Source of the DNA: Candidatus Enterousia sp. | GTDB taxonomy: Bacteria; Pseudomonadota; Alphaproteobacteria; Rs-D84 | DNA length: 32,488 bases | Assembly: GCA_045643525.1 (NCBI GenBank) | Contig: JAZUKY010000047.1 | Span: forward strand, 1 to 32,488 | Reading direction: 5' to 3' | Part shown: in pieces, positions 7,051 to 32,488 of the stretch | Layout of the letters: each line of letters begins with the position of its first letter | How positions within the stretch are numbered: position 1 is the first letter of the stretch | Position numbers and translations under genes: made by a program | Notes under the pieces: model-generated | The model's database searches: none | Told to the model about the DNA's origin: nothing | Seen by the model: only the letters and a program-made list of their open reading frames with translations

Positions 7051-10000
7051 TCTATATTTACCCTTATTCCCAATCCAACAAAGTCATTCGCCGTATTCGT
7101 TCCCAATTCAACCCCGTTTGGCAATGTTATTGTTGCAACCCTGTCACCAGTATGCAAATTTAAAATTACCTTCGTCATTCCATGCGGCAACGTATCCAAA
7201 GCCTTTTTCACATCCGTCAAAACCGCCTGATTATAAATTTCCAATGTTATACGACGGGCAATTTTTGCAATCCATTGCGATAATGGTATTATTGAATCAA
7301 CAAAAACAGAAACACGTTCATCACGATTTGATGTTTTTCCAGATATTAAAACGACACTGTCTGATGATAGAATTTGACTGAATGTTGCTGCAGATTCTCC
7401 AAATGCAATAGCATCTATATTTCCAAAACTATCCGACGCATTTATCGTTATCATATCTTTGCCGGATTTGGTTTTACGACGTGAAAAAGATCCAACATTA
7501 GCGGCAATCTGAACCGGTTTACGATCACCAAAGTCAGCCAAAGTGGCACTAGTAGCCAATTTTGCCTGTGCAATTAAATTTTTATACTGATCCAACGGAT
7601 GGGCCGATATATAAAATCCCAATGCAGACAATTCATTTTCCAAACGCTGGGCAAATGTCCATGGTTCTGTTGCCAATAAACTTTTTAGTAATCTATTTTC
7701 ACTAACATCACCTTCGACAGTATTCGCAAATAGCGACAACAAATTACCACCATCACGTGATTTTGATGCATATGATAAAATAGCATCGGCATTCATAAAT
7801 ATTTTTGCACGATTTGGTTCCAAAGAATCCAAAACACCGACCTTGGCAAATGCTTCTAATATACGCTTATTAATAATTGGTGCACAACGTTTTGCAAAAT
7901 CTGTTATATTCTTGAATTTACCATTTTTATTTCGTTCTGAAACAATTGCATCGGTTGCAACTGTACCAACCCCCTTAATCGCAGCTAAACCGTATATAAT
8001 CTTGCCATCACGTACCGTAAACAAAGATTCACTCTGGTTTATATCTGGTGCGACGATTGGTATATTAAAGTTTGTTTTGGCATCGTCAACAAATATCGCC
8101 AATTGATCTGTATCATTCAGATTACTGGACATTGATGCTGCTAAAAATTCAGGTGTATAGTTTGCTTTTAAATATGCACACTGATTTGCAACAATTGAAT
8201 ACGCAATTGCGTGCGATTTATTAAAAGCATATTTTGCAAATTCTTTGAACTGTTCCCATAATTTTTTTGCGGTATCACGATCCAATGTCTGTTCTTTTTC
8301 ACATCCTTCGAAAAATTGTCCCTCCAATTCATTCAATTTTTCAATTAATTTTTTTCCCATAGCCTTTCGCACAGTATCGGATTGTCCACGTGTAAATCCG
8401 GCCAAAGCACGGGTTAATTGCATAACTTGTTCCTGATAAACAATGATACCATACGTTTCTTTTAATATAGGTTCTGCCTTTGGATGGACATATTCTATTT
8501 TTTCTTCACCATGCATACGGGCAATAAATTGCGGTATAAAGGCAATTGGTCCAGGGCGGTTTAATGCATTTAATGCGGATATTTCCAAGAAACTGGTTGG
8601 GTGCATTTTTCGCAATGTCTGTTGAACAAATTGTGCATCAAATTGAAATATGCCCTCAGTTAAACCACGTTGCCACAAATCCATAGTTTTAGCATCATCA
8701 ACTGGAATTTTATCTAAATCTATGTTAATACCACGGGTTTGTTGAATCAATTTTACTGCATATTTCAACACAACCAGGGTTTCCAACCCTAAAAAGTCAA
8801 ATTTTATCAATCCAGCAGATTCCAAATAATGTCCATCAAATTGACATGATGGCAATGGATTCGCAGGATCCCGATAAACGGGGGCTATTTTTGTTGTGGG
8901 CCTGTCACCAATAACAACCCCACACGCATGTTGCCCCAAATTACGAATTGACCCCTCTAATGCTTCGGCCACATTAACAACCTTGTTCATATCATCATCA
9001 GTTGCCAAAATATCTTGTATTTCATCGGATGAATCCACCGCGTCTTTTAGTGTTTTTGCCTCTTGTGGAATCAATTTTGATAAACGATCTGATTTAGAAT
9101 AGGGGATACCGTACACACGGCCAATATCACGAATTGCACCACGTGCCTGTAAACTGCCAAATGTAATAATACGGCAAACAGAATCATGACCGTATTTATC
9201 ACATATATACGCCAATACCCGTTCGATACCGGTGGGTTCAAAATCAACGTCAAAATCCGGCATTGATATACGATCTGGATTTAAGAAACGTTCAAACAAT
9301 AATCCATACTTTAATGGATTAACGTGGGTAATTCCCAATGCCCACGCAACAATAGATCCGGCCCCTGAACCACGTCCCGGTCCTGTTAACACATCATTGT
9401 TTCTGCACCATTGAATATAATCCGCAACAATCAAAAAATACCCAGGGAAGCCCATACCTATGATGACCCCCAATTCAAATTCGGCCTGTTCGTAATAGGG
9501 TGCAGTATCCGTAATATTTTGTTCTTGCAAACGCTGTGCCAAACCATCCATCGTATTTTTACGCAACATCGCACATTCTGCCTCTAAATCGTCACCAAAA
9601 CGGGGCAACAGGGGCTTTTCATGAACATTAACCATAAAACCACAACGATTTGCAATATGCACTGTATTTTCAATTGCCTCCGGTAAATCAGAAAACAATT
9701 CCGACATTTCTGCTGACGATTTAAAATATTGTTCTGATGATTTTCGGGCACGTTCTGGATCAATAACCTTGGTTTGCCCTAATACACAACTTAACGCGTC
9801 TGCGGCCTCGTAATCTTCAGCAGCCCCAAATGCGGCATTATTTGTTGCAACAATCGGTATATTTAATTCACGTGCCAGCTTTAAAAACATCGGTTCTGTT
9901 TTTATTTCATCCGTTAAACCATGACGTTGAATTTCCATATAAAATCTGTCACCAAAAACACCAACAAATTTTTGAGCGAACGTTTTTGCCAAATCATCCT

Positions 10001-10457
10001 GATTATTTAATACGGCCATACCAATTGGTCCAGTATGAGCCCCAGACAAACAAATCAAGCCGTCACTGTGATTAAATAATTCATCAAACGAAATATACGG
10101 CCCCAAATGATGGTTATTTGGTCGCATATACATAATACGACTGATTTCACATAAATTAAGATACCCCGTATGATTTTGTGCCAACAAAACAATGCGCGAC
10201 AATGAGGTTTCACGTAAAATTTTTGGATCTGCCGCATGATGATTTAACGACAATTCCACACCGATGATTGGTTGCAAATGATTTTTTGGCATAACATCTG
10301 AAAATTCAGCACAACCAGACATTAAATTCGTATCAGTTAATGCACACGCAGCCATTCCCAAAGCAGCACATAATTTTGGGATATCTTTGACCCGAATAGT
10401 CCCAGCCCCCACAGATAAACGTGAATGTGTACGAAGATGTATGAATTGTTTTTCCAT
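7047..10457 (-). CDS. dnaE: DNA polymerase III alpha subunit
   Basis: The track ORF runs to 10487, but that start is TTG. ATG 10457 gives MEKQFIHLRTHS, the PHP-domain start. Motifs present: GRGSGAGSIVAWALGITHVNPL, MPDFDVDF, IKFDFLGL, VYQEQVMQL, FNKSHAIAYS. The stop overlaps the rsmH ATG (ATGA). Confidence 0.92.
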   Translation of the reverse strand: MEKQFIHLRTHSRLSVGAGTIRVKDIPKLCAALGMAACALTDTNLMSGCAEFSDVMPKNHLQPIIGVELSLNHHAADPKILRETSLSRIVLLAQNHTGYLNLCEISRIMYMRPNNHHLGPYISFDELFNHSDGLICLSGAHTGPIGMAVLNNQDDLAKTFAQKFVGVFGDRFYMEIQRHGLTDEIKTEPMFLKLARELNIPIVATNNAAFGAAEDYEAADALSCVLGQTKVIDPERARKSSEQYFKSSAEMSELFSDLPEAIENTVHIANRCGFMVNVHEKPLLPRFGDDLEAECAMLRKNTMDGLAQRLQEQNITDTAPYYEQAEFELGVIIGMGFPGYFLIVADYIQWCRNNDVLTGPGRGSGAGSIVAWALGITHVNPLKYGLLFERFLNPDRISMPDFDVDFEPTGIERVLAYICDKYGHDSVCRIITFGSLQARGAIRDIGRVYGIPYSKSDRLSKLIPQEAKTLKDAVDSSDEIQDILATDDDMNKVVNVAEALEGSIRNLGQHACGVVIGDRPTTKIAPVYRDPANPLPSCQFDGHYLESAGLIKFDFLGLETLVVLKYAVKLIQQTRGINIDLDKIPVDDAKTMDLWQRGLTEGIFQFDAQFVQQTLRKMHPTSFLEISALNALNRPGPIAFIPQFIARMHGEEKIEYVHPKAEPILKETYGIIVYQEQVMQLTRALAGFTRGQSDTVRKAMGKKLIEKLNELEGQFFEGCEKEQTLDRDTAKKLWEQFKEFAKYAFNKSHAIAYSIVANQCAYLKANYTPEFLAASMSSNLNDTDQLAIFVDDAKTNFNIPIVAPDINQSESLFTVRDGKIIYGLAAIKGVGTVATDAIVSERNKNGKFKNITDFAKRCAPIINKRILEAFAKVGVLDSLEPNRAKIFMNADAILSYASKSRDGGNLLSLFANTVEGDVSENRLLKSLLATEPWTFAQRLENELSALGFYISAHPLDQYKNLIAQAKLATSATLADFGDRKPVQIAANVGSFSRRKTKSGKDMITINASDSFGNIDAIAFGESAATFSQILSSDSVVLISGKTSNRDERVSVFVDSIIPLSQWIAKIARRITLEIYNQAVLTDVKKALDTLPHGMTKVILNLHTGDRVATITLPNGVELGTNTANDFVGLGIRVNIE

Positions 10458-10571
10458 TATGGATGTGATACTAGCAAAAAATACCAAAGTAGGGCAACCA
10501 TATATTTAATAAAAAATTAATAAATATTCTTGATTATTTTAAACATTATTTTTACACTACCCCCCCGCTAA

Positions 10572-11267
10572 ATGAAAAGTGATAATAATATGAATAGATT
10601 AAATAAAATTATTGTAATTTTCCCTTTATATTTTCAATGTTATAATTTTGCTTATGCTGCAGGTAATGTTTGCACCAGTGCAAACTTTTCCAAAGCTTGT
10701 ACTTCATCAACAGTAATAGCATTAAAAGAAACCGCATGTAAAAGTTCAACTAACGTGTGTGTTACGAATGGTTCCAGTACTGTTTATGTTCAATATTGTC
10801 CACCTAATTATTGTAATACGTGATTATTATACTGTATCAAAAACCGATTTATACCTATGTTCAAATACATCCAGTCCTTACAACGGCTATATACAACGTG
10901 TGCAGCGTGTTCATGTTCTAATTGTACAAGCGACACTGATTGGAGTGCATCTGGTACCGGTTATCAAAAAAAAATTAACTAAACAATGTATATGTACCTC
11001 AGCTAGTAATGGAACCTGTTCAACAACAAAAACGGAATATCGATGTGCGGCAGGTTATTATGGAACATCCACAAATGGTACATCCGGCTATTCCCCGTGC
11101 AGTAATACTGGCAGTGCACGAAAACAATACGGTTCCGGTACAAATATTTATCCAACATCTGATGCGGGTGTGACAATGCCACAATTAACAAATGCTATTA
11201 CCCAACCGGTACTTATCAAGATTCTGCCAGAACATATACAATTAGTTCAAAATGTTATTACAAATAA
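10572..11267 (+). pseudogene. Frameshifted gene for a secreted Cys-rich protein (at least four frame changes)
   Basis: Signal-peptide-like start MNRLNKIIVIFPLYFQCYNFAYA. The sensible Cys/Ser/Thr/Gly/Tyr-rich reading jumps frame 0 to 1 near 10819. It returns to frame 0 near 10890 (TTCAACSCSNCTSDTDWSASGTGYQKK). It shifts to frame 1 at the A9 tract 10966-10974 (KQCICTSASNGTCSTTKTEYRCAAGYYGTS...). It returns to frame 0 near 11165 (CDNATINKCYYPTGTYQDSARTYTISSKCYYK, stop 11265-11267). A terminator follows. Confidence 0.6.
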
Positions 11268-11282
11268 TATTATTTCTTTTAC

Positions 11283-11316
11283 AAAAAAAAAATCCCGCCA
11301 AAAGGTGGGATTTTTA
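11283..11316. terminator. Bidirectional intrinsic terminator (pseudogene / rpsD)
   Basis: AAAAATCCCGCC pairs with GGTGGGATTTTT around loop AAAA, with one G-U pair. An A-run lies upstream and a T-run downstream. Confidence 0.75.
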
Positions 11317-11337
11317 ACATATATCCATATTCAACGA

Positions 11338-11970
11338 TTAACGTGAATAGAATTCAACAACCAATTCTGGGAACATTTGAACAGGATATGGTACATCTGC
11401 AAATGCAGGTACACGAACAAATGTCGCTGTAAAATTGGCACTATCAACATTGATATAGTCTGGCCAGTTACGTTCTGCTGATTCCAATGCCAAAACAACC
11501 AATGGCATCTGTTTTGCTTTTTCGCTAACTGTGATTACATCACCTGGTCGTACCTGATAAGACGCAATTTTTACACGTTTACCATTAACCAAGATATGAC
11601 CATGGCTAACCAACTGACGGGCTGAAAAAACGGTTGGTGCCAATTTTGAACGATATACAACCGCATCCAAACGACGTTCTAACAAACCAATCAAATTTTC
11701 TGGTGTATCACCTTTCATATTATCTGCTTCTAAATAATATGCACGGAACTTCTTTTCACCAATATTTCCATAATAACCTTTTAATGTCTGCTTTGCACGC
11801 ATCTGTTTTGCATAATCAGACGAACTGGCCCCACGTGATGTTGGTCCATGTTGTCCAGGTTTATATTTGCGTTTATTAAACGGAGATTTTGCCTGACCCC
11901 ACAGGTTAACACCCAAACTGCGGCCGATTTTTAATTTTCTTGTGCTACGTTTTGCACCAGCTCTTGCCAT
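11338..11970 (-). CDS. rpsD: 30S ribosomal protein S4
   Basis: 210 aa with PGQHG and the S4 RNA-binding domain [54 protein letters not shown] lies 5 nt before the ATG. Confidence 0.92.
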
Positions 11971-21838: not shown

Positions 21839-21878
21839 AAAATAAATACAGGTAATTTATTTTACCTGTATTTATTTT
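21839..21878. terminator. Bidirectional terminator, perfect 17-bp inverted repeat
   Basis: AAAATAAATACAGGTAA (21839-21855) pairs perfectly with TTACCTGTATTTATTTT (21862-21878) around a 6-nt loop. It lies between the convergent argS and tlyA. Confidence 0.8.
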
Positions 21879-21913: not shown

Positions 21914-22621
21914 TTATTTTTTTAAACTCATTAAAAACTCAACATTACCACTACCACCCAATATTGGCGATTTCACCACCCCATCAACATTATATCCCAA
22001 TTGTGTAAAACAATTCGCAACCTTATCAATCACCATACAATGTAAATCTTTTGATTTTATAACCCCATTCGTACGCGCAGCAATTTCACGCGATACCTCA
22101 AACTGAGGTTTTACCAAAACAATTATTCGTGGCGAATTCCATAAAACCAAAGCATCCGCTATATTCGTTAACGACACAAATGAAACATCAACAACTATCA
22201 AACCAACACCTTCAACAGGGGGCATTTTTCGAATATCGGTATTTTCATACGACACAACATGCGGATTATCACGTATTTGTGGTATCAATTGATTTGTCCC
22301 AACATCAACCGCAATTACACGCGACGCACCATGTGACAGCAAAACTTCTGTAAAACCACCTGTACTGGCACCAACATCCAAACACATTAAACCGTTTGGA
22401 TTAACATTAAAATATTCCAACGCATGTAATAATTTCAAACTGCCACGTCCAGATACATATGGCAGGGCGTCCCCAGATATATTATCCGTATCCAACACCA
22501 TTTGACTCGGCTTTTGCACAACAATACCATTAACCATAACCAAACCAGATTTTATCGCTGCAACCGCCTTGGCACGGCTAGGATAAATATTTCGTAAAAC
22601 CAATTCTTGATCTAATCTCAT
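21914..22621 (-). CDS. tlyA: TlyA-family rRNA (cytidine-2'-O)-methyltransferase / hemolysin A
   Basis: N-terminal S4 domain MRLDQELVLRNIYPSRAKAVAAIKSGLVMVNG and the FtsJ-type SAM motif CLDVGASTGGFTEVLL. Confidence 0.88.
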   Translation of the reverse strand: MRLDQELVLRNIYPSRAKAVAAIKSGLVMVNGIVVQKPSQMVLDTDNISGDALPYVSGRGSLKLLHALEYFNVNPNGLMCLDVGASTGGFTEVLLSHGASRVIAVDVGTNQLIPQIRDNPHVVSYENTDIRKMPPVEGVGLIVVDVSFVSLTNIADALVLWNSPRIIVLVKPQFEVSREIAARTNGVIKSKDLHCMVIDKVANCFTQLGYNVDGVVKSPILGGSGNVEFLMSLKK

Positions 22622-24071
22622 AACATTTGAATTATATCACATTAAAACTAACAAAAACAACTGTTATTACACAAATCGCACTACTAACAATAAACTTTAA
22701 CTTTTATTTATTATATATTGAAACAACCTATCTTTCTATTTATCCAAAATACAAAAACACCACAAAAAGCGATACAAACTACACAAAATTTACTTTCTAC
22801 AGAATTATGTATAGCTTACACCCTATAAACAATTTCAAGAAAGCACACTATCATATTATATTTACATATATAATCACAAATCAACACCATACCAAACAAA
22901 ACAATTTCACCATACAAATACATTTAAAAAAACACCAAACAAAAAAACAGATATTTTACATATCCAACAAAATATCCAGTAAATTTTACATCCAATATAA
23001 ACACACCAAAACAAAAAATACACTGCCACACAAATACTAAAGTATACATAATATACATTATACGCCTTTTATAAATCTTAAAAACACATACCCCCCTGTT
23101 ATGTTTTTAAGATTATTTTTTTACAACAAAACCATTTTTTATTTCGATGCTTTTTTTACAAACAATAATCAATATACATTGCCATCAACATTTTTTAATT
23201 TTATAGATATAAAATTTTATTATAAACAGTATTTTTACAAACGAATTCATATTTTATACACCTAATACCACAACGTACAAACTAACCATTTTAAAACAAC
23301 AAACAAACCTTTATATAAATCGAACACAAAAAAAACATTAAAAAAGCCTGATTTTCAACACCCCAACACAATTCCACTTCCCTATAAACAGACAGACAAA
23401 CAACAAACAATTCTCACCATAAACACACACGTTGTTTAGCTAACACATCTCCACAACAACAATATCCAAACACATATTTCATCACCATACACGCTTTCCC
23501 TCAACAACATCATTTTCACACACCAAACAATTCACCACTATTAAAAATATTTATTTACACACAAACGCCCTTAACAAAGTTTATATATTTTTCCAATCAA
23601 AGGATTACCCCTGCATTTCAAATAATAAAGTTCTGATTTTCATCTTTATAAAAAAACACTCTACTCAAAATAAAAACACACAATATTACCACTACAACAA
23701 CAATAAAATTACACAGACATATCAACCAATTACAAAATCACACTAATACAATTTATCAACAATAATAACTATACATAATATATATAGAAAATCATTTTTA
23801 TCATCATCTTTAAAAACACAATCGTTAACAAACCCCACAACAATAACACCAACACCGCAGAAACCTAATACTTTACACAAAAAAAATTCAACACCAAAGC
23901 AAATATATTATATAAACCACACTATTTTCCACACAGCACAAATAACAAGTCAAAAAAAATATTAACCAACTTACACCAACTATTATTCAACTTAAACTAG
24001 AAACTACAAGTTAAAGACAATTATAAATAGAATCACAAACAAAATCAAATAATACAACCAACCGACTGTTA
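22622..24071. other. ~1.45-kb non-coding, G-depleted (A/C-rich on + strand) spacer
   Basis: There is no credible ORF on either strand. My hand count gives about 54 G in ~1450 nt (~4%), against 13-17% in sampled flanking lines. A is ~50%, C ~25% and T ~24%. G-free runs span 22844-22949 and 23636-23715. Confidence 0.85.
23074..23122 (+). terminator. Intrinsic-terminator-like hairpin inside the G-poor spacer, + strand orientation
   Basis: AATCTTAAAAACA (23074-23086) pairs with TGTTTTTAAGATT (23102-23114), a 13-bp stem. The 15-nt loop contains C6. ATTTTTTT (23115-23122) follows. The reverse orientation lacks a U-run. Confidence 0.4.
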
Positions 24072-24632
24072 TTACATATTATTTTTATATGTTTGAAGTG
24101 CTTTTACAACTTTACTTAATGTTTTACGTAAACTTTCGTCACGTGTGTCTACAGTAATGTTTGCTAATGCGTAAATATCATAGCGTTCATCAATCAATTG
24201 CGCCAAAACCTGTTTACTGTCAACATGTAATAATTGTGGTCTTGTATGACGAAAATTTGTTCGTTTAACTAACAAATCTAAATCTGCACGCAACCATATT
24301 GATATCGCATTTTCCAAAACCATTTCACGTACCAACGATGTAATAAATGCACCCTCGCCCGTAGAAATAACTTTGCATACCGGTGGCGTATTCAACAATC
24401 GTTCAATAACACGTTGTTCAACACGTCTGAATTCTGTTTCACCATACATCGAAAAAATATCAACCACACTACATCCGGCCGCAGCCTCAATTTCTTTATC
24501 TGAATCAACAAATGGTATACCCAACCTACGTGCCAACGCACGTCCAATACTGGTTTTACCCGCCCCCATTAATCCGACCATAACAATCGGTTTATCTAAT
24601 GCAATATCTATTTTTTCTAATTTATGATTCAT
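24072..24632 (-). CDS. aroK: Shikimate kinase
   Basis: Walker A GLMGAGKTSIGRALA, plus FVDSDKEIE and GETEFRRVE. The start is uncertain: ATG 24632 is preferred over the TTG at 24668 used by the track. Confidence 0.88.
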   Translation of the reverse strand: MNHKLEKIDIALDKPIVMVGLMGAGKTSIGRALARRLGIPFVDSDKEIEAAAGCSVVDIFSMYGETEFRRVEQRVIERLLNTPPVCKVISTGEGAFITSLVREMVLENAISIWLRADLDLLVKRTNFRHTRPQLLHVDSKQVLAQLIDERYDIYALANITVDTRDESLRKTLSKVVKALQTYKNNM

Positions 24633-24680
24633 ACTGTGTATTTTATCAAAAAAACACCGATTGCTCAATCAAAACATTTT

Positions 24681-26150: not shown

Positions 26151-26507
26151 ATGAAAAAAACATTTGAAAAAACCTTAAACGTTTTGACCCGCAACATGGG
26201 TTACACAACCGTTTTAATTGTTGCAATCGTATTGTTTGCAATTTTTTCTGGCGGTTTATTAAACGGTATCATCACTGCCCTGTCTGCAATTATTGGTGCG
26301 ACATGTGTGGTTGTTTTGGTTCGTGAATATAAAAAGACCCCAGATCCTGTTGCAAAACCTACACCTGCAGAAAAACCAGCAACAAAGGCTGCACCGGCAG
26401 CAAAAAAAGCACCTGCGAAAAAAGCAGTTGCCAAGAAAGCACCGGCCGCCAAAGCCGCAGCAAAACCTGCAGCAAAAAAGGCACCAGCCAAAAAGAAATC
26501 AAAATAA
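26151..26507 (+). CDS. Two-TM membrane protein with histone-H1-like Ala/Lys/Pro-rich C-terminal tail
   Basis: 118 aa. TM hairpin YTTVLIVAIVLFAIF / LNGIITALSAIIGATCVVVLV. The tail is KKTPDPVAKPTPAEKPATKAAPAAKKAPAKKAVAKKAPAAKAAAKPAAKKAPAKKKSK. Confidence 0.8.
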   Translation: MKKTFEKTLNVLTRNMGYTTVLIVAIVLFAIFSGGLLNGIITALSAIIGATCVVVLVREYKKTPDPVAKPTPAEKPATKAAPAAKKAPAKKAVAKKAPAAKAAAKPAAKKAPAKKKSK

Positions 26508-27021: not shown

Positions 27022-30000
27022 TTAAAATTCACCATTGGATATGCCAAAGAATCTGTCAAAGAATTCCTGCAGACGTGTTATGATATTGCGTTTGCGCTGG
27101 GTGCGATTTGCAGATTTATCAAAACGTGACATTGGTGGTAAAACCTTTTCAATGTCTTGGCCATTTGTCTGCACCGAACCATTGCGGAACGAATTTCTGA
27201 TGAACGTGTATGTTTCTTCTTTGTTCAAGTTTTCCTGTGTTATGATTTTATTTAATTCATTAATTTTTGCCTGATTGACAAACATCATCCATTCTTCATC
27301 AACAACAGAATTTGGTGTTAATGAATTAATAAATTGCAAAATAAGATCTTTTTTGTTACGTAAATCAACACTGGAATCAATTGCACGTTCAATAGAAATC
27401 ATTATTTCTTTATCACAACAATTATCATCATGATATTTTTTTACCAATGCCAAAATATAATCAATATTAACCTCGGTCTGTTTGATTAATTCCATTTCAA
27501 ACACTAAATCATCATTTATATTTTCTTTGCCATTATCTTTATTTTTTATATATTTACCATGCATTTCAATATACATACTGGCATAATCTTGGATATCGCG
27601 TTCGGATAATATTTTTTTATCAGCAAATTCATCAAACGATGTCAAAACATTGCTTAAACGAACAATGCCACTGTATAAACGTATAAATTCTTTTTCGGCA
27701 CCCTCGCCCGTTATTATTTGGCCAATTGGGAATTTATCCAATAATTCTGCAACTAATTCTTTATATCCGCGTATTTGTTTTTCACCATCTGTATAGCCAT
27801 TATAGTATTCTGCAAATGTTTTTAATAAAACTACACCGGCGGCATCTTTATCACCAAATAATGCCAAACTTTCGTTAGTTGCCTTTTCCAGATTGCGAAA
27901 ACAAACAATATTTCCGTGTGTCTTGATAGAATTCAATATACGGTTGGTGCGTGAATATGCCTGCAACAGGCCATGCATACGTAAATTTTTATCAACCCAT
28001 AATGTATTTAACGTTGTCGCATCAAAGCCAGTTAAAAACATATTAACAACAATTAACAAATCTATTTCACGATTTTTCATACGTAATGAAACATCTTTGT
28101 AATAATTTTGAAATCTGTCACTGGATGTATCATAACTGGTACCGAACATTTTATTATAATCATCAATGGCTGATTCTAAAAATTCACGTGATGATATATC
28201 TAAGGCATTTGTATTTTCTGGATTCTCGTCCCACATACCATCTTCGGAATAATCATCACCATTGGCGGCAAAACTGTAAATGGTTGCTATTTTCAATGCA
28301 CGTTCCGGATGTTCGGCCATTTGTTTTTTAAATTCATTATAATACAAACGTGCCATTGGTATTGATTGCACCGCAAGTATAGAATTAAACCCAGACATAC
28401 GGATTGCCTGTTTTACTTTTTCTATTCTATTACGATCTTTGGCACTGGCAACAGTTTCAACATTTTTAATAACGCTGTAAACAAACGATTTATCATTTCG
28501 TTTGGTTTTGATATTAAAGTTATTTAAAATGTATTCTACGTTGTTTTTTATGCGTTCTGGGGCCATTAAAACGTTTTCACGATCAATATCATTTATTTTT
28601 TTATTTTCTATATCTTCGGCATCCCTGCATTTCACAGTGCCAATATAATCAACTTTAAACGGCAATACGTTTTTGTCTCGGATTGCATCAACGATACTGT
28701 AAACATGCAACCGTTCGCCAAATGCCTGATCTGTTGTTTTTAATTCCGCCATTCCCCCAGAATTAGAATTAATTGCAAAAATCGGTGTTCCGGTAAACCC
28801 AAACAAATGATATTTTTTGAATGCATGGGTTATTTGGGTATGTGAAACCCCAAAATGCGAGCGATGACATTCATCAAATATCATTACAATATGTTTATCA
28901 AAAATTGGATGATTTTTATTTTTTTCTATAAAAATGGATAATTTTTGAATTGTTGTGATAATGATTTTTACATTTGAATCTTCTAATTGACGTTTTAATA
29001 CAGCCGTGCTGGTGTTACTGTTTGCGGCACCTTTTTCAAAACGGTCATATTCCTGCATTGTTTGATAATCCAAATCTTTGCGATCAACGACAAATAAAAC
29101 CTTATCTATTTCTGGCATTGCACTGGCCAATTGTGCGGTTTTAAAACTGGTCAATGTTTTGCCACTTCCGGTCGTATGCCAAATATAACCACCACCATCA
29201 ATTGTCCCATATTTTTTGTAATTTGAAGACACATTGATTTTGTTTAAAATTCGTTCCGTGGCAACGATTTGATATGGACGCATAACTAATAAATTATCAT
29301 CGGCATTAAACACACAGTAACGTGTTAAAATGTTTAAAATCGTATGTTTGGCAAAGAATGTTTTTGCAAAATCCATCAGATCAATAATTGGCATATTTGT
29401 TGCATCCGCCCACATGGATGTAAATTCAAAACTGTTACTGGTTTTCTTATGCGGTACGGCAGAATTATTCTTGGCTTCATTTATATGCAAATTACGTGTT
29501 GTATTACTGTAATATTTTGTATATGTCCCATTTGATATAACAAATATTTGAATGTATTCGTATAAACCGCAACCGGCCCAGAAACTGTCCTGTTGATAAC
29601 GGTTGATTTGGTTAAACGCCTGTTTAATATCAACACCACGCCGTTTTAATTCAATATGTACCATTGGAATGCCATTAACCAATACGGTCACATCATAACG
29701 ATTATCATGCGCCCCTGTTACCTCATATTGGTTTATAACCTGCAATCGGTTATTGTGAATATCTTTTTTATCCAACAAATAAATATTTTTAGTGCTGCCA
29801 TCATCACGCGTCAGCAATTGAATATGGCCATCACGTTGCAAAATGGCCGTTTTTTCTTTGATACCATTATTTTTATTTGCAATATTTTGTTTAAAAAACG
29901 TATTCCATTCATTATCGGTAAATTTATAATCGTTCAATAATTCCAATTGATTGCGCAGATTATTTATTAAATCATCCTCGCTGTGGATTGGTAAATATTC

Positions 30001-30144
30001 ATACGCCTGCTTTTGCAATTGCGCAATAAACATTTTTTCTAATTCTGATTCCGATTGATATGCAGTTACCCGTGATGTATTTGGTTGATACTGTGCAACA
30101 ACTGTGGATTCTGTATTTTCTGCAACGACGCTGTAATTTACCAT
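27022..30144 (-). CDS. hsdR: Type I restriction enzyme R subunit, EcoR124I-like (type IC)
   Basis: 1040 aa. Nuclease region NRYDVTVLVNGIPMVHIELKRRG. Helicase motifs GGGYIWHTTGSGKTLTSFK, FVVDRKDLDYQT, MIFDECHRSHFG, FGFTGTPIF, LIVVNMFLTGFDATTLNTLWVDKNLRMHGLLQAYSRTNRI. By my recollection these strings closely parallel EcoR124I HsdR. Confidence 0.92.
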   Translation of the reverse strand: MVNYSVVAENTESTVVAQYQPNTSRVTAYQSESELEKMFIAQLQKQAYEYLPIHSEDDLINNLRNQLELLNDYKFTDNEWNTFFKQNIANKNNGIKEKTAILQRDGHIQLLTRDDGSTKNIYLLDKKDIHNNRLQVINQYEVTGAHDNRYDVTVLVNGIPMVHIELKRRGVDIKQAFNQINRYQQDSFWAGCGLYEYIQIFVISNGTYTKYYSNTTRNLHINEAKNNSAVPHKKTSNSFEFTSMWADATNMPIIDLMDFAKTFFAKHTILNILTRYCVFNADDNLLVMRPYQIVATERILNKINVSSNYKKYGTIDGGGYIWHTTGSGKTLTSFKTAQLASAMPEIDKVLFVVDRKDLDYQTMQEYDRFEKGAANSNTSTAVLKRQLEDSNVKIIITTIQKLSIFIEKNKNHPIFDKHIVMIFDECHRSHFGVSHTQITHAFKKYHLFGFTGTPIFAINSNSGGMAELKTTDQAFGERLHVYSIVDAIRDKNVLPFKVDYIGTVKCRDAEDIENKKINDIDRENVLMAPERIKNNVEYILNNFNIKTKRNDKSFVYSVIKNVETVASAKDRNRIEKVKQAIRMSGFNSILAVQSIPMARLYYNEFKKQMAEHPERALKIATIYSFAANGDDYSEDGMWDENPENTNALDISSREFLESAIDDYNKMFGTSYDTSSDRFQNYYKDVSLRMKNREIDLLIVVNMFLTGFDATTLNTLWVDKNLRMHGLLQAYSRTNRILNSIKTHGNIVCFRNLEKATNESLALFGDKDAAGVVLLKTFAEYYNGYTDGEKQIRGYKELVAELLDKFPIGQIITGEGAEKEFIRLYSGIVRLSNVLTSFDEFADKKILSERDIQDYASMYIEMHGKYIKNKDNGKENINDDLVFEMELIKQTEVNIDYILALVKKYHDDNCCDKEIMISIERAIDSSVDLRNKKDLILQFINSLTPNSVVDEEWMMFVNQAKINELNKIITQENLNKEETYTFIRNSFRNGSVQTNGQDIEKVLPPMSRFDKSANRTQRKRNIITRLQEFFDRFFGISNGEF

Positions 30145-30155
30145 AACATGCCCCT

Positions 30156-31322
30156 TTATTCAGCAATTTGTTCAAAGTTTAATAATTTATCGCGCCAGTA
30201 TTCATATTGTTGGCGACGTACGTTTATTTCAGCGGGCAAACCAATTGATATGTCATTTACCAACGCATCAAATTTATCCAATATGGAAACAATACGTTCC
30301 TGTTCGGCAAGTGATGGAACTGGAACTTTTAATTTGTTAAAATCTTTGATGTTTAGGTTGTTTCTATCACTTTTTATCATACTTTGTATGGCTCGTTTGT
30401 TTATACTACTGTTCAGATAATATGCTATAAATTGTGGCAAAACGACATTTTGATTTTTTATTCTAGTGACAATGGTTGCAAAACCTAAACTACCATCAAA
30501 CTCTTTTGTAATTACCGCAGATGTGCCAACATCACCAGTATGAACAGTTATTATATCCCCCAGTTTATGTTGCCTGCTTGCATTTGATTTCGCAAATTCT
30601 CTATCTAAAAAAATTTGCTTGGTGATTTTAATATGATTTTCTTTTATATTGCAATTATTCAGAAGTTTAACCCCATCTTCAACATAGTGTGTTGTCATTG
30701 TGGTCACAAGTCCTATAAATGTGTCAGCAATATCTATTATTGGTCTGTATGCATCTGGTGCAATATTTAACAATTCGTCACGATAATGTTCGTATTGCTT
30801 CTTTCTAGCTTCTAGTTCGGCTTCTAGTTCGGCTTCTAGTTCAGTAAAGGCGTCCAGAATACGAACAATTTCTTCCTGAACTGGTAATGGCGGAACAGGA
30901 ATTTGCAATCCGTTTAGTTTTTTTCTGCTTAAACTTGGAATACCCGCACCTTGTTGTGATTTCATAAATTCGTCTTGATGGTTCTTCAAAATATAATATA
31001 CATATTTTTTTAATACATTATCAGTTATAAATGTTAATACATAACAGTGTGCACCTGCCCAAAAATTTTCTGTCATCCAATTAACATATCCTGCTGATGC
31101 ACCGCCTTGACTAATTGCCACGTTATTTTTTTCGGAATTATATTCGTCATATCTGCCAGATGGATATATTCCGCCGTTCATAACAGGGTATTTACCACTA
31201 TTAAACAACAATTCCTTGTTTAACTGTTTTCCTGTGTCAATGGTTGCCAATTTTTCCAATTTGCAGTATTCAACCCCATTTGGGCAGTATTTGGCAATTA
31301 AATCATCAATTTTGGACATCAT
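30156..31322 (-). CDS. hsdS: Type I restriction-modification specificity subunit
   Basis: 388 aa with two target-recognition domains. The conserved helices are LPVQEEIVRILDAFTELEAELEAELEARKKQYEHYRDELL (central) and LAEQERIVSILDKFDALVNDISIGLPAEINVRRQQYEYWRDKLL (C-terminal). There is a TAATG overlap with hsdM and an 11-nt gap to hsdR. Confidence 0.9.
   Translation of the reverse strand: MMSKIDDLIAKYCPNGVEYCKLEKLATIDTGKQLNKELLFNSGKYPVMNGGIYPSGRYDEYNSEKNNVAISQGGASAGYVNWMTENFWAGAHCYVLTFITDNVLKKYVYYILKNHQDEFMKSQQGAGIPSLSRKKLNGLQIPVPPLPVQEEIVRILDAFTELEAELEAELEARKKQYEHYRDELLNIAPDAYRPIIDIADTFIGLVTTMTTHYVEDGVKLLNNCNIKENHIKITKQIFLDREFAKSNASRQHKLGDIITVHTGDVGTSAVITKEFDGSLGFATIVTRIKNQNVVLPQFIAYYLNSSINKRAIQSMIKSDRNNLNIKDFNKLKVPVPSLAEQERIVSILDKFDALVNDISIGLPAEINVRRQQYEYWRDKLLNFEQIAE
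30818..30853 (-). repeat. 12-bp x3 tandem repeat encoding (ELEA)3 in the hsdS central conserved region
   Basis: On the + strand: gcttctagttcg, gcttctagttcg, gcttctagttca. Confidence 0.9.
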
Positions 31323-32488
31323 TAACCCTCCAAATCTTTCACAATGGCATCTATCTTGGTGCGAAGTTCATTTTGACGTGCCACGATACCTGTGATGCGC
31401 TGGTTCAATTCGGTTATATCAACAACTTCACGTGTGTCACGTGCCTCCACATAACTGGATACAGATAAATTATAATCATTTTCAGCAATATCGTCTTTTT
31501 TAACCAATTTGCAAAAATGTTCCACGTTTTCACGTTTGATATATGCGTTCAGCAATGTTTCAATGTTTTCGTCCGACAATTTGTTTTTATTGCCGGAATG
31601 AATGAATTGTTCACTGCCATCAATAAATAAAATATGATTATCGTTTTTGCTTTTCTTTAACACAATGATGCAGGTTGCAATACTTGTTCCAAAAAACATA
31701 TTATCTGGCAATTGAATAACACAATCAACAAAGTTATTATCAACCAAATATTGGCGGATTTTCTTTTCTGCACCACCACGATATAAAACGCCGGGAAATT
31801 CAACAATTGCCGCGGTACCATCGGTTGACAACCATGATAACATGTGCATTGTAAATGCCAAATCGGCCGCGCTTTTTGGGGCCAAAACCCCAGCGGGTGC
31901 AAAACGGCTGTCGTTTATCAACAACGGGTTAGAATCACCCTCCCATTTAATACCATATGGCGGATTGGAAACGATTGCTTCAAATGGTTCATCATCCCAA
32001 TGTTTTGGGTTTAATAGTGTATCACCCAATGCAATATCAAATTTAGAATAATTTATACCATGTAAAAACATGTTTATACGGCACAGATTATATGTGGTTA
32101 TATTTATTTCCTGGCCGTAAAAGCCTTGGTTAACATTATCACGACCCAAAACCTTGGCAAATTGCAATAATAATGAACCGGAACCGCATGCTGGGTCATA
32201 AACCTTATTAACAGATGTTTTCATATTGTTTGGCTGGTTACGGTCAACCAATGTTATTTTTGCCAATAATTTTGATACTTCCTGGGGGGTAAAAAATTCA
32301 CCACCGGATTTACCCGCGTTACCCGCATACATTGTCATTAAATATTCATACGCATCACCAAATGCATCAATCGTATTATTCTGAATATCATCATTTAATT
32401 TTAAATCTGCAATTGCATCTAATATTTTTACCAATTTTTTATTGCGTTCCGGAACGGTGGCCCCTAATTTATTTGCATTAACATCAAT
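31322..32488 (-). CDS. hsdM: Type I restriction-modification N6-adenine DNA methyltransferase subunit (5' end beyond the right edge)
   Basis: SAM motif [12 protein letters not shown] and catalytic NPPYGIKW. The track start at 32434 is TTG, and the frame stays open to the window edge ([24 protein letters not shown]...), so the gene is 5'-truncated by the window. Confidence 0.92.

Follow-up and report, generated by a model that had tools for sequence, protein, structure and literature searches.

The dif/XerCD system of chromosome dimer resolution, together with FtsK and the FtsK-orienting polar sequences (KOPS), has been described in Escherichia coli and in other Proteobacteria, and in the terminus of Bacillus subtilis the XerD-binding sites (XDS) unload SMC complexes. 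The dif site of E. coli is GGTGCGCATAATGTATATTATGTTAAAT (PMC3025954) and its KOPS is GGGNAGGG (PMC2680272). Among the 161 proteobacterial dif sites of Carnoy and Roten, the XerD arm was the most conserved part, the second central base was the most variable of the six and the outer ends varied (PMC2731167); the published distance between dif and the shift of GC skew is 0-1.39% of the genome within one sigma, with outliers below 3%. In addition, gokushoviruses use XerCD to integrate at the dif of E. coli (Kirchberger and Ochman 2020, PMC7062461). In the literature we found no description of the terminus, the dif site or the prophages of Candidatus Enterousia (order Rs-D84). In the present study, a stretch of 32,488 nucleotides from Candidatus Enterousia sp. 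(contig JAZUKY010000047.1 of assembly GCA_045643525.1; the whole stretch is called the window below) was analysed, in which the genes tlyA and aroK are separated by a non-coding island with almost no G on the + strand and almost no C on the - strand (22622-24071). Judged by its sequence, the core of this island is a new instance of the known system of dif/XerCD, FtsK-KOPS and the microvirus prophages known as integrative mobile elements exploiting Xer (IMEX). The rest of the island is, with a probability of about 0.62, unconstrained non-coding DNA around dif, shaped by AT-biased and strand-asymmetric C-to-T mutation.

The island is bordered by tlyA (21914-22621, - strand) and aroK (24072-24668, - strand), with tadA upstream of aroK. 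Over its 1450 nt the + strand holds 672 A (46.3%), 323 C (22.3%), 399 T (27.5%) and 56 G (3.9%), and the whole window has 15.2% G and 21.3% C. The original prediction, in which 54 G had been counted by hand, had described a G-poor tract free of open reading frames (ORFs), and this was borne out; the lengths and positions of its two G-free runs (106 nt at 22844-22949, 80 nt at 23636-23715) were exact and its flanking genes were correctly named (TlyA-family methyltransferase, TIGR00478, 189.8 bits with a cut-off of 185.8; shikimate kinase, NF010552, 218.5 with a cut-off of 186), while its base shares (A about 50, C about 25 and T about 24%) were slightly off. All 200-nt windows with less than 7% G lie within the island except one at 21851 (6.5%), no 200-nt window with less than 7% C occurs anywhere in the 32 kb, and there is no second G-poor stretch of this type in them. 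No credible ORF was found in the island on either strand: those of the - strand do not exceed 45 aa, and the longest one, 137 aa on the + strand, is of low complexity, has no Pfam match and exists because TAA is the sole stop codon on a G-free strand. Searches of the island for tRNA and tmRNA, for tandem repeats of note and for repeated motifs found none, and the Rfam search gave nothing at gathering or E-value thresholds.

For comparison, we used 80 loci (labelled L001-L080) that were retrieved with AroK (71-86% identity) from species-representative GTDB genomes, and they were compared by dif-anchored stacks and pairwise alignment. All of them come from gut metagenome-assembled genomes (MAGs) labelled Candidatus Enterousia or unclassified Alphaproteobacteria, a lineage with genomes of about 0.75-1.0 Mb and a coding density of about 90% (PMC12306168). 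A look-up of the exact TlyA protein gave no record, and a metagenome scan with TlyA yielded no confirmed relative; as strain-level relatives were thus lacking, neutrality was assessed on close pairs among the 80 loci. In 44 of the 80, aroK and tlyA share a strand and are separated by 1.2-5.3 kb, and in most relatives mscL (PF01741, E 1e-31 to 1e-34) directly follows aroK, then comes an ORF-free stretch and then tlyA. C-poor tracts (at least 400 nt with less than 7% C on the aroK-sense strand) were present at this locus in 30 of the 80, and tracts of the opposite polarity in none. Because the tract recurs in that many independently assembled genomes, the island is not an assembly artefact, which the original prediction had named as one way to undo its claim.

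Within the island, we assign the 28 bp at 23041-23068 (- strand) to dif, and we consider this assignment nearly secure in view of the single match, the conservation, the likeness to the E. coli site, the switch of KOPS and the prophages in relatives. The candidate consists, on the - strand, of an XerC arm AAGGCGTATAA (23068-23058), the central TGTATA (23057-23052) and an XerD arm TTATGTATACT (23051-23041), so that a 6-bp centre is enclosed by two 11-bp arms whose inner parts show dyad symmetry. It is identical to E. coli dif at 21 of 28 positions, including all six of the centre. The 28-mer matches once in the window, in non-coding DNA, and not at all in 100 shuffles; the related loci likewise have one copy each, except where a prophage has duplicated it. 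In blastn of the island against these loci only two types of match appeared, namely tlyA with about 100 nt upstream of it, and a block of 30-45 nt (23033-23077) that is about 90% identical in almost every locus. After stacking on this block, AAGGCG(C/T)ATAATGTATATTATGTATAGTTT was nearly invariant in 76 of the 80 loci with unrelated flanks, and in 74 aligned sites the information content was limited to the 28 nt plus 2-3 nt. The form AAGGCGCATAATGTATATTATGTATAGT was present in 41 of these 74 sites, and the variants differ only at the outer XerC arm, the first three central bases and position 27 in the XerD arm. This variation follows the trend reported by Carnoy and Roten, the XerD arm being all but fixed, the outer XerC arm varying and the central changes falling mostly on the second base. 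In the mechanism that we propose, the site at 23041-23068 would be bound by XerC and XerD, GGGNAGGG-type words pointing at dif from both sides would guide FtsK, which would activate recombination there, and integrase-less microviruses would integrate through the same site. No tyrosine recombinase was detected in the window or the 80 loci with an approximate E. coli XerD query, and Xer and FtsK are presumably encoded elsewhere in the genome.

The polarity of KOPS gives further evidence for this site. In a de novo scan for words that change their strand bias at dif, the strongest 7-mers were GGGCAGG and GCAGGGC, which are the core of the E. coli GGGNAGGG. In 77 loci, and spread over +/-6 kb, GGGNAGGG occurred 54 times on the top strand and 0 times on the bottom strand to the left of dif, and 1 and 53 times, respectively, to the right. 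The more general word YAGGGS was top-biased on the left in 74 of the 77 loci (0 opposite) and bottom-biased on the right in 59 (6 opposite), whereas the control G-rich words SGGGAY and GGGG kept the same bias on both sides. In the last 60 nt to the left of dif, 29 KOPS-like words were counted on the top strand and 0 on the bottom strand. In the window by itself, KOPS-like words are split 8:0 between the strands towards aroK and 5:18 towards tlyA (p = 1.6e-4). FtsK-orienting polar words therefore converge on dif. Two such words, both CAGGGG on the - strand and pointing at dif, are found in the island by the YAGGGS scan: one at 23093-23098, 30 nt before dif and inside the loop of an AT-rich hairpin, and one at 23608-23613 (position -545). 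A semi-conserved CAGGGCA(N)CGATAT, a KOPS-like word directed at dif, was also seen in the loci just outside the XerC arm, 8-25 nt before dif (for instance in L015, L017 and L024), and its counterpart in the window is 23091-23098.

The relatives also carry prophages at this site. L072 holds, between dif and a second dif-like copy, a 4.4-kb segment (7483-11900) that encodes a Microviridae major capsid protein F (PF02305; phrog_514, E 3e-104), a pilot protein and Rep; no integrase was detected in it with the approximate E. coli XerD query, and the prophage is absent from the sister genome L068. A related prophage lies at 7113-11525 in L002, the closest relative of the window; its junction is a hybrid in which the XerC arm of the host is retained, and microvirus homologs are present in L003, L015 and L080 as well. 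The two prophages of L072 and L002 differ in orientation. These segments support the prediction that integrase-less microviruses integrate at dif in the relatives, as gokushoviruses do at the dif of E. coli. We also tried single-stranded DNA phages as the source of the composition of the island and rejected them, since the prophage-bearing interval of L002 as a whole is not C-poor (C 14.9%) and the orientations in L002 and L072 differ.

Around dif, extra XerD-arm half-sites lacking an XerC arm were recognized. In the window these are TATTATGTATAGTTA at 23766-23780 (- strand), in the orientation of dif and 712 nt from it towards aroK, and TTATGTATAGCTT at 22805-22817 (+ strand), inverted relative to dif, about 225 nt towards tlyA and with 1 mismatch. 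Among the extra half-sites of the relatives, 21 of the 24 with the orientation of dif are on the aroK side, and all 35 inverted ones are on the tlyA side, often in tandem. Tandem arrays occur in 11 relatives (L013, L068, L005, L064, L050, L067, L017, L069, L075, L076 and L006), the first 150-420 nt after dif; their unit is a small hairpin plus an inverted XerD-arm half-site AAAC[T/G]ATACATAATAT, with a period of 43-61 nt and 2.8-8 copies. The arrays may be XerD-binding arrays or scars of mobile elements. From such material comes another account of the island, in which it originated from eroded Xer-dependent mobile elements, that is microvirus prophages, together with half-site arrays; we regard this origin as possible but rather unlikely, and it is compatible with a mutational cause of the composition. 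The prophages at dif in L072 and L002, the homologs in three other loci, the arrays of the 11 relatives and the array of L072, which grades into G/T-rich sequence, speak for it, and so do the widely varying distances of dif from aroK (0.6-5.5 kb) and from tlyA (0.4-3.1 kb) in the relatives and the lone half-site on each side in the window, each in the orientation typical of its side. However, the L002 microvirus proteins had no tblastn match in the window, the island had no blastn match in phage and plasmid collections, and C/T-blind alignment was no better than shuffles except for dif-anchored extensions. In three relatives (L027, L052 and L057) the 300 nt to the left of dif are nearly identical, with a divergence between L027 and L052 of 0.7% as compared with 0.33 at the 4-fold sites of aroK, and dif lies about 1.7-3.3 kb after aroK, the usual distance being about 0.9 kb; this suggests that their left flank is a shared mobile insertion on the XerC side.

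We then consider why the island holds so little G. The share of C on the - strand is given by GC x (1 - skew)/2, and with the GC of 0.262 and the skew of 0.70 found in the island it comes to 3.9%. The - strand of the island (A.275, C.039, G.223, T.463) resembles the 4-fold sites of tlyA, aroK and tadA (A.278, C.056, G.270, T.397; skew 0.66), and the share of C does not differ between them (Fisher p = 0.23); the short spacers of the window have a GC of 0.17-0.37. Two ordinary factors, low GC (26%) and the local skew, give the G depletion, and neither is locally exceptional. From the window to the island, G falls from 15 to 4% and A rises from 32 to 46%, as if about three quarters of the G had turned into A, and C on the + strand (22.3%) is close to the 21.3% of the window, which removes the earlier objection that C was too high for a G-to-A change. 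In the mutational explanation, the low GC of non-coding DNA and a strong C-to-T pressure on the - strand would leave the + strand nearly free of G. Since the synonymous sites of the - strand are rich in G and T over at least 22 kb, this strand is presumably the leading one. Genes on the opposite strand show the same absolute polarity of skew at their 4-fold sites, and therefore the asymmetry goes with the DNA strand rather than with transcription. The spacers of 43 relatives had a mean skew of 0.45, which is above the 75th percentile (0.42) and below the maximum (0.55) of the 4-fold skews of genes at the same locus, and across species the C of the spacer was correlated with 4-fold C (rho 0.37, p 0.01).

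The same asymmetry continues across dif. The - strand is similarly poor in C on both flanks (4.0% towards aroK and 3.3% towards tlyA), and this constant sign of the skew fits a mutational bias that depends on the direction of replication and not a dif-centred function. As the polarity is identical across dif, mirror-symmetric causes are ruled out. A KOPS-type polar tract was rejected as the cause of the composition, for KOPS flips at dif and the composition does not; a break at dif followed by resection was rejected too, since it predicts opposite skews on the two sides and these are absent. A strand-specific C-to-T hypermutation centred on dif and separate from the genome-wide bias, through single-stranded DNA at termination, Xer/FtsK processing or terminus repair, is very unlikely in our view. 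It would agree with the 4-fold C of 5.6% in the three genes touching the island as compared with 12.1% in the 14 other - strand genes of the window (p = 0.001), the island being like the near genes. On the other hand, 4-fold C in 68 relatives was 0.170 near dif and 0.178 more than 2.5 kb away, which is not significant, single distant genes of the window reach the same skew (0.56-0.67), and the opposite polarities expected from resection are not seen.

Sequence constraint in the spacer was assessed by the divergence between species. The coding DNA of the window and L002 is about 78-80% identical, and in the island only the dif core (about 30 nt) and the tlyA-proximal part of about 100 nt (to 22723) can be aligned. 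For the four closest species pairs, the raw divergence of the spacers to the left and right of dif and that of the aroK 4-fold sites was 0.04 and 0.04, 0.10-0.16 and 0.10, 0.19-0.21 and 0.17, and 0.18-0.20 and 0.17, respectively; in more distant pairs the spacers seem less diverged than 4-fold sites, in alignments that are of low complexity and include some flanks of shared mobile DNA. The best reading is that some 1.4 kb would have no sequence-specific function, the exceptions being dif, the tlyA promoter and one or two XerD half-sites, and we infer that mutation rather than selection sets the composition of the island.

Several observations weigh against this explanation. The short spacers of the window have little skew, although being short and filled with signals they are weak controls. 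Even in species whose 4-fold sites are rich in GC (GC4 up to 0.7), the spacers remain AT-rich and contain 7-9% C. Their composition is thus no plain copy of that at 4-fold sites, and the explanation has to assume, as is usual, that non-coding DNA comes closer to the AT-biased mutational equilibrium. Among 149 polarised changes in the arrays adjacent to dif, a small set from arrays possibly under selection, A-to-G exceeded T-to-C, C-to-T was not significantly more frequent than G-to-A, and the equilibrium implied by these substitutions did not reproduce the depletion of C. About 850 kb of related sequence contain 69 ORF-free gaps of at least 250 nt; 56 of them lie within 1.5 kb of dif, with a mean C of 8.3%, while the 9 outside the aroK-tlyA interval have 11-24% C, these being weak controls of 250-390 nt that are likely filled with signals. 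Furthermore, non-coding DNA of 0.4-1 kb is kept on each side of dif throughout the genus in spite of genomes below 1 Mb that are about 90% coding, and this persistence hints at some selection for the presence of the spacer. Finally, GC skew is expected to switch close to dif, and no such switch was seen between -7.5 and +22 kb.

Such points favour the view that the composition itself is selected, so that a C-poor/G-poor tract conditions the neighbourhood of dif. In one variant the + strand RNA would be an ideal Rho substrate that keeps dif free of transcription, and in another the tract would be a landing zone for Xer, FtsK or SMC unloading. Besides the clustering of long C-poor gaps at dif and the persistence of the spacer in these small genomes, this view can call upon the uniform make-up of the spacer among species with a 4-fold GC anywhere between 0.27 and 0.73, and upon a + strand RNA with a C/G ratio of 5.8 and almost no structure. 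We nevertheless hold it, with its variants, to be quite improbable, because the skew of the spacer is not above that of synonymous sites in neighbouring genes, its polarity is constant across dif while KOPS, which is demonstrably selected, flips, and the control gaps are few and short.

The relation between GC skew and dif deserves attention in its own right. At dif there is no flip in the 4-fold GC skew, in generic G-rich words or in gene orientation, and the aroK-sense strand is rich in G and T throughout, from -7.5 kb in the relatives, which cover -7.5 to +4.5 kb, to +22 kb in the window. A distance of 22 kb is more than 2.5% of a genome below 1 Mb and lies at the edge of the published spread. 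The simplest reading is that forks coming from the aroK side normally pass dif and meet at a point more than 22 kb beyond it, and the mismatch between KOPS and GC skew suggests that in this genus replication usually ends well away from dif. A stronger proposal, in which the C-poor tract is a selected part of the dif region or a zone of local hypermutation, with KOPS and dif uncoupled from GC skew by at least 22 kb, appears improbable to us. The sole reversal of skew in the window is in the block of hsdR, hsdS and hsdM at 27.0-32.4 kb (27022-32434), with a 4-fold GC skew of -0.21. Its HsdR is 98% identical to that of L001 and L002, whereas AroK and TadA are 80-86% identical, and the type I restriction-modification block hsdRSM looks like a recent transfer.

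The original prediction had offered three explanations of the island. The first was a long non-coding RNA, CA-rich from the + strand or GU-rich from the - strand, that acts as a single-stranded platform or sponge for proteins. An extreme composition kept at the locus across the genus would suit such an RNA, as would the absence of structure in a + strand transcript: a 956-nt segment folds at -33 kcal/mol (z +0.5) on the + strand. The GU-rich - strand reaches -159 kcal/mol (z -0.6) through G-U and A-U pairs, so that the expectation of a nearly structure-free transcript from either strand was right for the + strand only, and the - strand fold is no better than shuffles. Some local palindromes are present in the 419-nt segment on the tlyA side (fold z -1.6 and -3.1). 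The RNA nevertheless receives hardly any credence from us, as no sequence is conserved beyond dif and the tlyA promoter region, the divergence is about neutral and close to that of 4-fold sites, and a recombination site lies in the middle of the tract. The signals expected of it are missing as well: there is no repeated motif and no Rfam family, the terminator scan of the island found none, and 24 promoter-like sites compared with 17.3 +/- 4.4 expected are no enrichment.

One promoter is nonetheless probable, that of tlyA at 22631-22660 (- strand), with TTGTTT (22660-22655), an 18-nt spacer and TATAAT (22636-22631), 10 nt before the ATG. Most relatives have a counterpart, TTGATTT-N17/18-TAnnAT, 10-45 nt before the tlyA ATG. 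As tlyA has its own promoter-like sequence, the island is not a long leader of this gene, and a long Rho-proof 5' leader, which we had also considered, is ruled out by the promoter-like sequence near the ATG in the relatives. Further inside the island, a predicted AT-rich hairpin lies beside the XerC arm (23077-23111), with a 10-bp stem of CTTAAAAACA and TGTTTTTAAG as read from the letters, the KOPS-like word in its loop, and an A-run and a T-run (23116-23122, + strand) on opposite sides. The terminator scan gives it no score because it has only 2 G-C pairs; at the equivalent place the relatives have an mscL hairpin or terminator.

The second explanation was a former gene that was inactivated and then suffered G-to-A change on the + strand, possibly by a deaminase, and mscL would be the natural candidate, being absent from the window and present between aroK and dif in most relatives. 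Compared with L004, L016, L024, L060 and others, the window and L002 show no trace of the gene, and about 0.5-1 kb of C-poor DNA stands in its place (23069-24071 in the window). The base shifts fit such a change, and the composition equals that of the 4-fold sites of tlyA, aroK and tadA, which is the part of the proposal that held. Its other part, the relic, fell: no trace of a gene was found, mscL included, neither by unfiltered tblastn of the island with seven MscL sequences nor by an alignment with C and T merged, and C-poor DNA of the same kind adjoins the intact mscL of relatives that keep the gene. We therefore see next to no chance for a gene relic. The third explanation, a DNA-level element exploiting strand asymmetry, was correct in so far as the tract contains a putative dif with flanking XerD half-sites; the asymmetry is not exploited, for the skew is constant where KOPS flips.

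Two further features of the window may be mentioned. The 850-nt dnaE-rpsD "spacer" holds at 10572-11346 (+ strand) two ORFs in different frames, of 83 and 195 aa, which read jointly as one Cys-rich protein with a signal peptide and no family match; they may be a frameshifted gene or a pseudogene. In addition, 26151-26507 (+ strand) encodes a small protein with one hydrophobic segment and a tail rich in Lys, Ala and Pro like that of histone H1-like nucleoid proteins, with weak matches only.

By these results the "G-less island" becomes an annotated landmark, namely the predicted dif and FtsK-orienting words of an uncultured, genome-reduced gut lineage. The dif site may serve as a practical marker to orient and close Enterousia MAGs, and it would be the attachment site of their microviruses. 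The island also shows how far ordinary strand-biased mutation can probably reach, with 4% G over 1.45 kb, and advises caution before new RNAs are called. If the switch of KOPS at dif without a switch of GC skew or gene orientation is true in complete genomes, it bears on whether replication ends at dif.

Compared with known systems, the composition of the island is like the replication-linked skew of Lobry type, attributed to cytosine deamination, in that one strand has more G than C and more T than A, at the 4-fold sites of genes of either orientation and in the spacer; it differs in being extreme (skew 0.70, with C down to 3.9% as GC is also low) and in keeping its sign at dif. A predicted + strand transcript would be C-rich, G-poor and unstructured as Rho utilization (rut) regions are, and A/C-rich as the Hfq/Crc-binding motifs of CrcZ-type CA-rich sponge RNAs are, but the island, 1.45 kb long, has no repeated binding motif, no defined ends and no sequence conservation. 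The isolated XerD-arm half-sites without an XerC arm around dif, in the window and in the relatives, recall XDS, and the arrays of the relatives are fixed in orientation on each side; unlike described XDS, these arrays are tandem repeats with a hairpin. The elements of about 4.4 kb in the relatives, with capsid F, pilot protein and Rep and no integrase, are like the gokushovirus and other microvirus prophages at dif that are known as IMEX (PMC7062461; Krupovic and Forterre 2011, PMC3091885), with the host dif at one end and a second dif-like site, which is more divergent, at the other; here, however, the host is an uncultured, genome-reduced alphaproteobacterium, and the window has isolated half-sites only and no prophage. 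Compared with the dif/XerCD/FtsK-KOPS system of E. coli and other Proteobacteria, the XerD arm ends here in ...TATAGT and not in ...TTAAAT, position 25 is T where A is highly conserved in Carnoy and Roten, and GC skew and gene orientation are unswitched for at least 22 kb on one side. The likeness lies in the 28 bp arranged as 11-6-11, the TGTATA centre, the better conserved XerD arm, the single copy in non-coding DNA and the GGGNAGGG words that converge on it.

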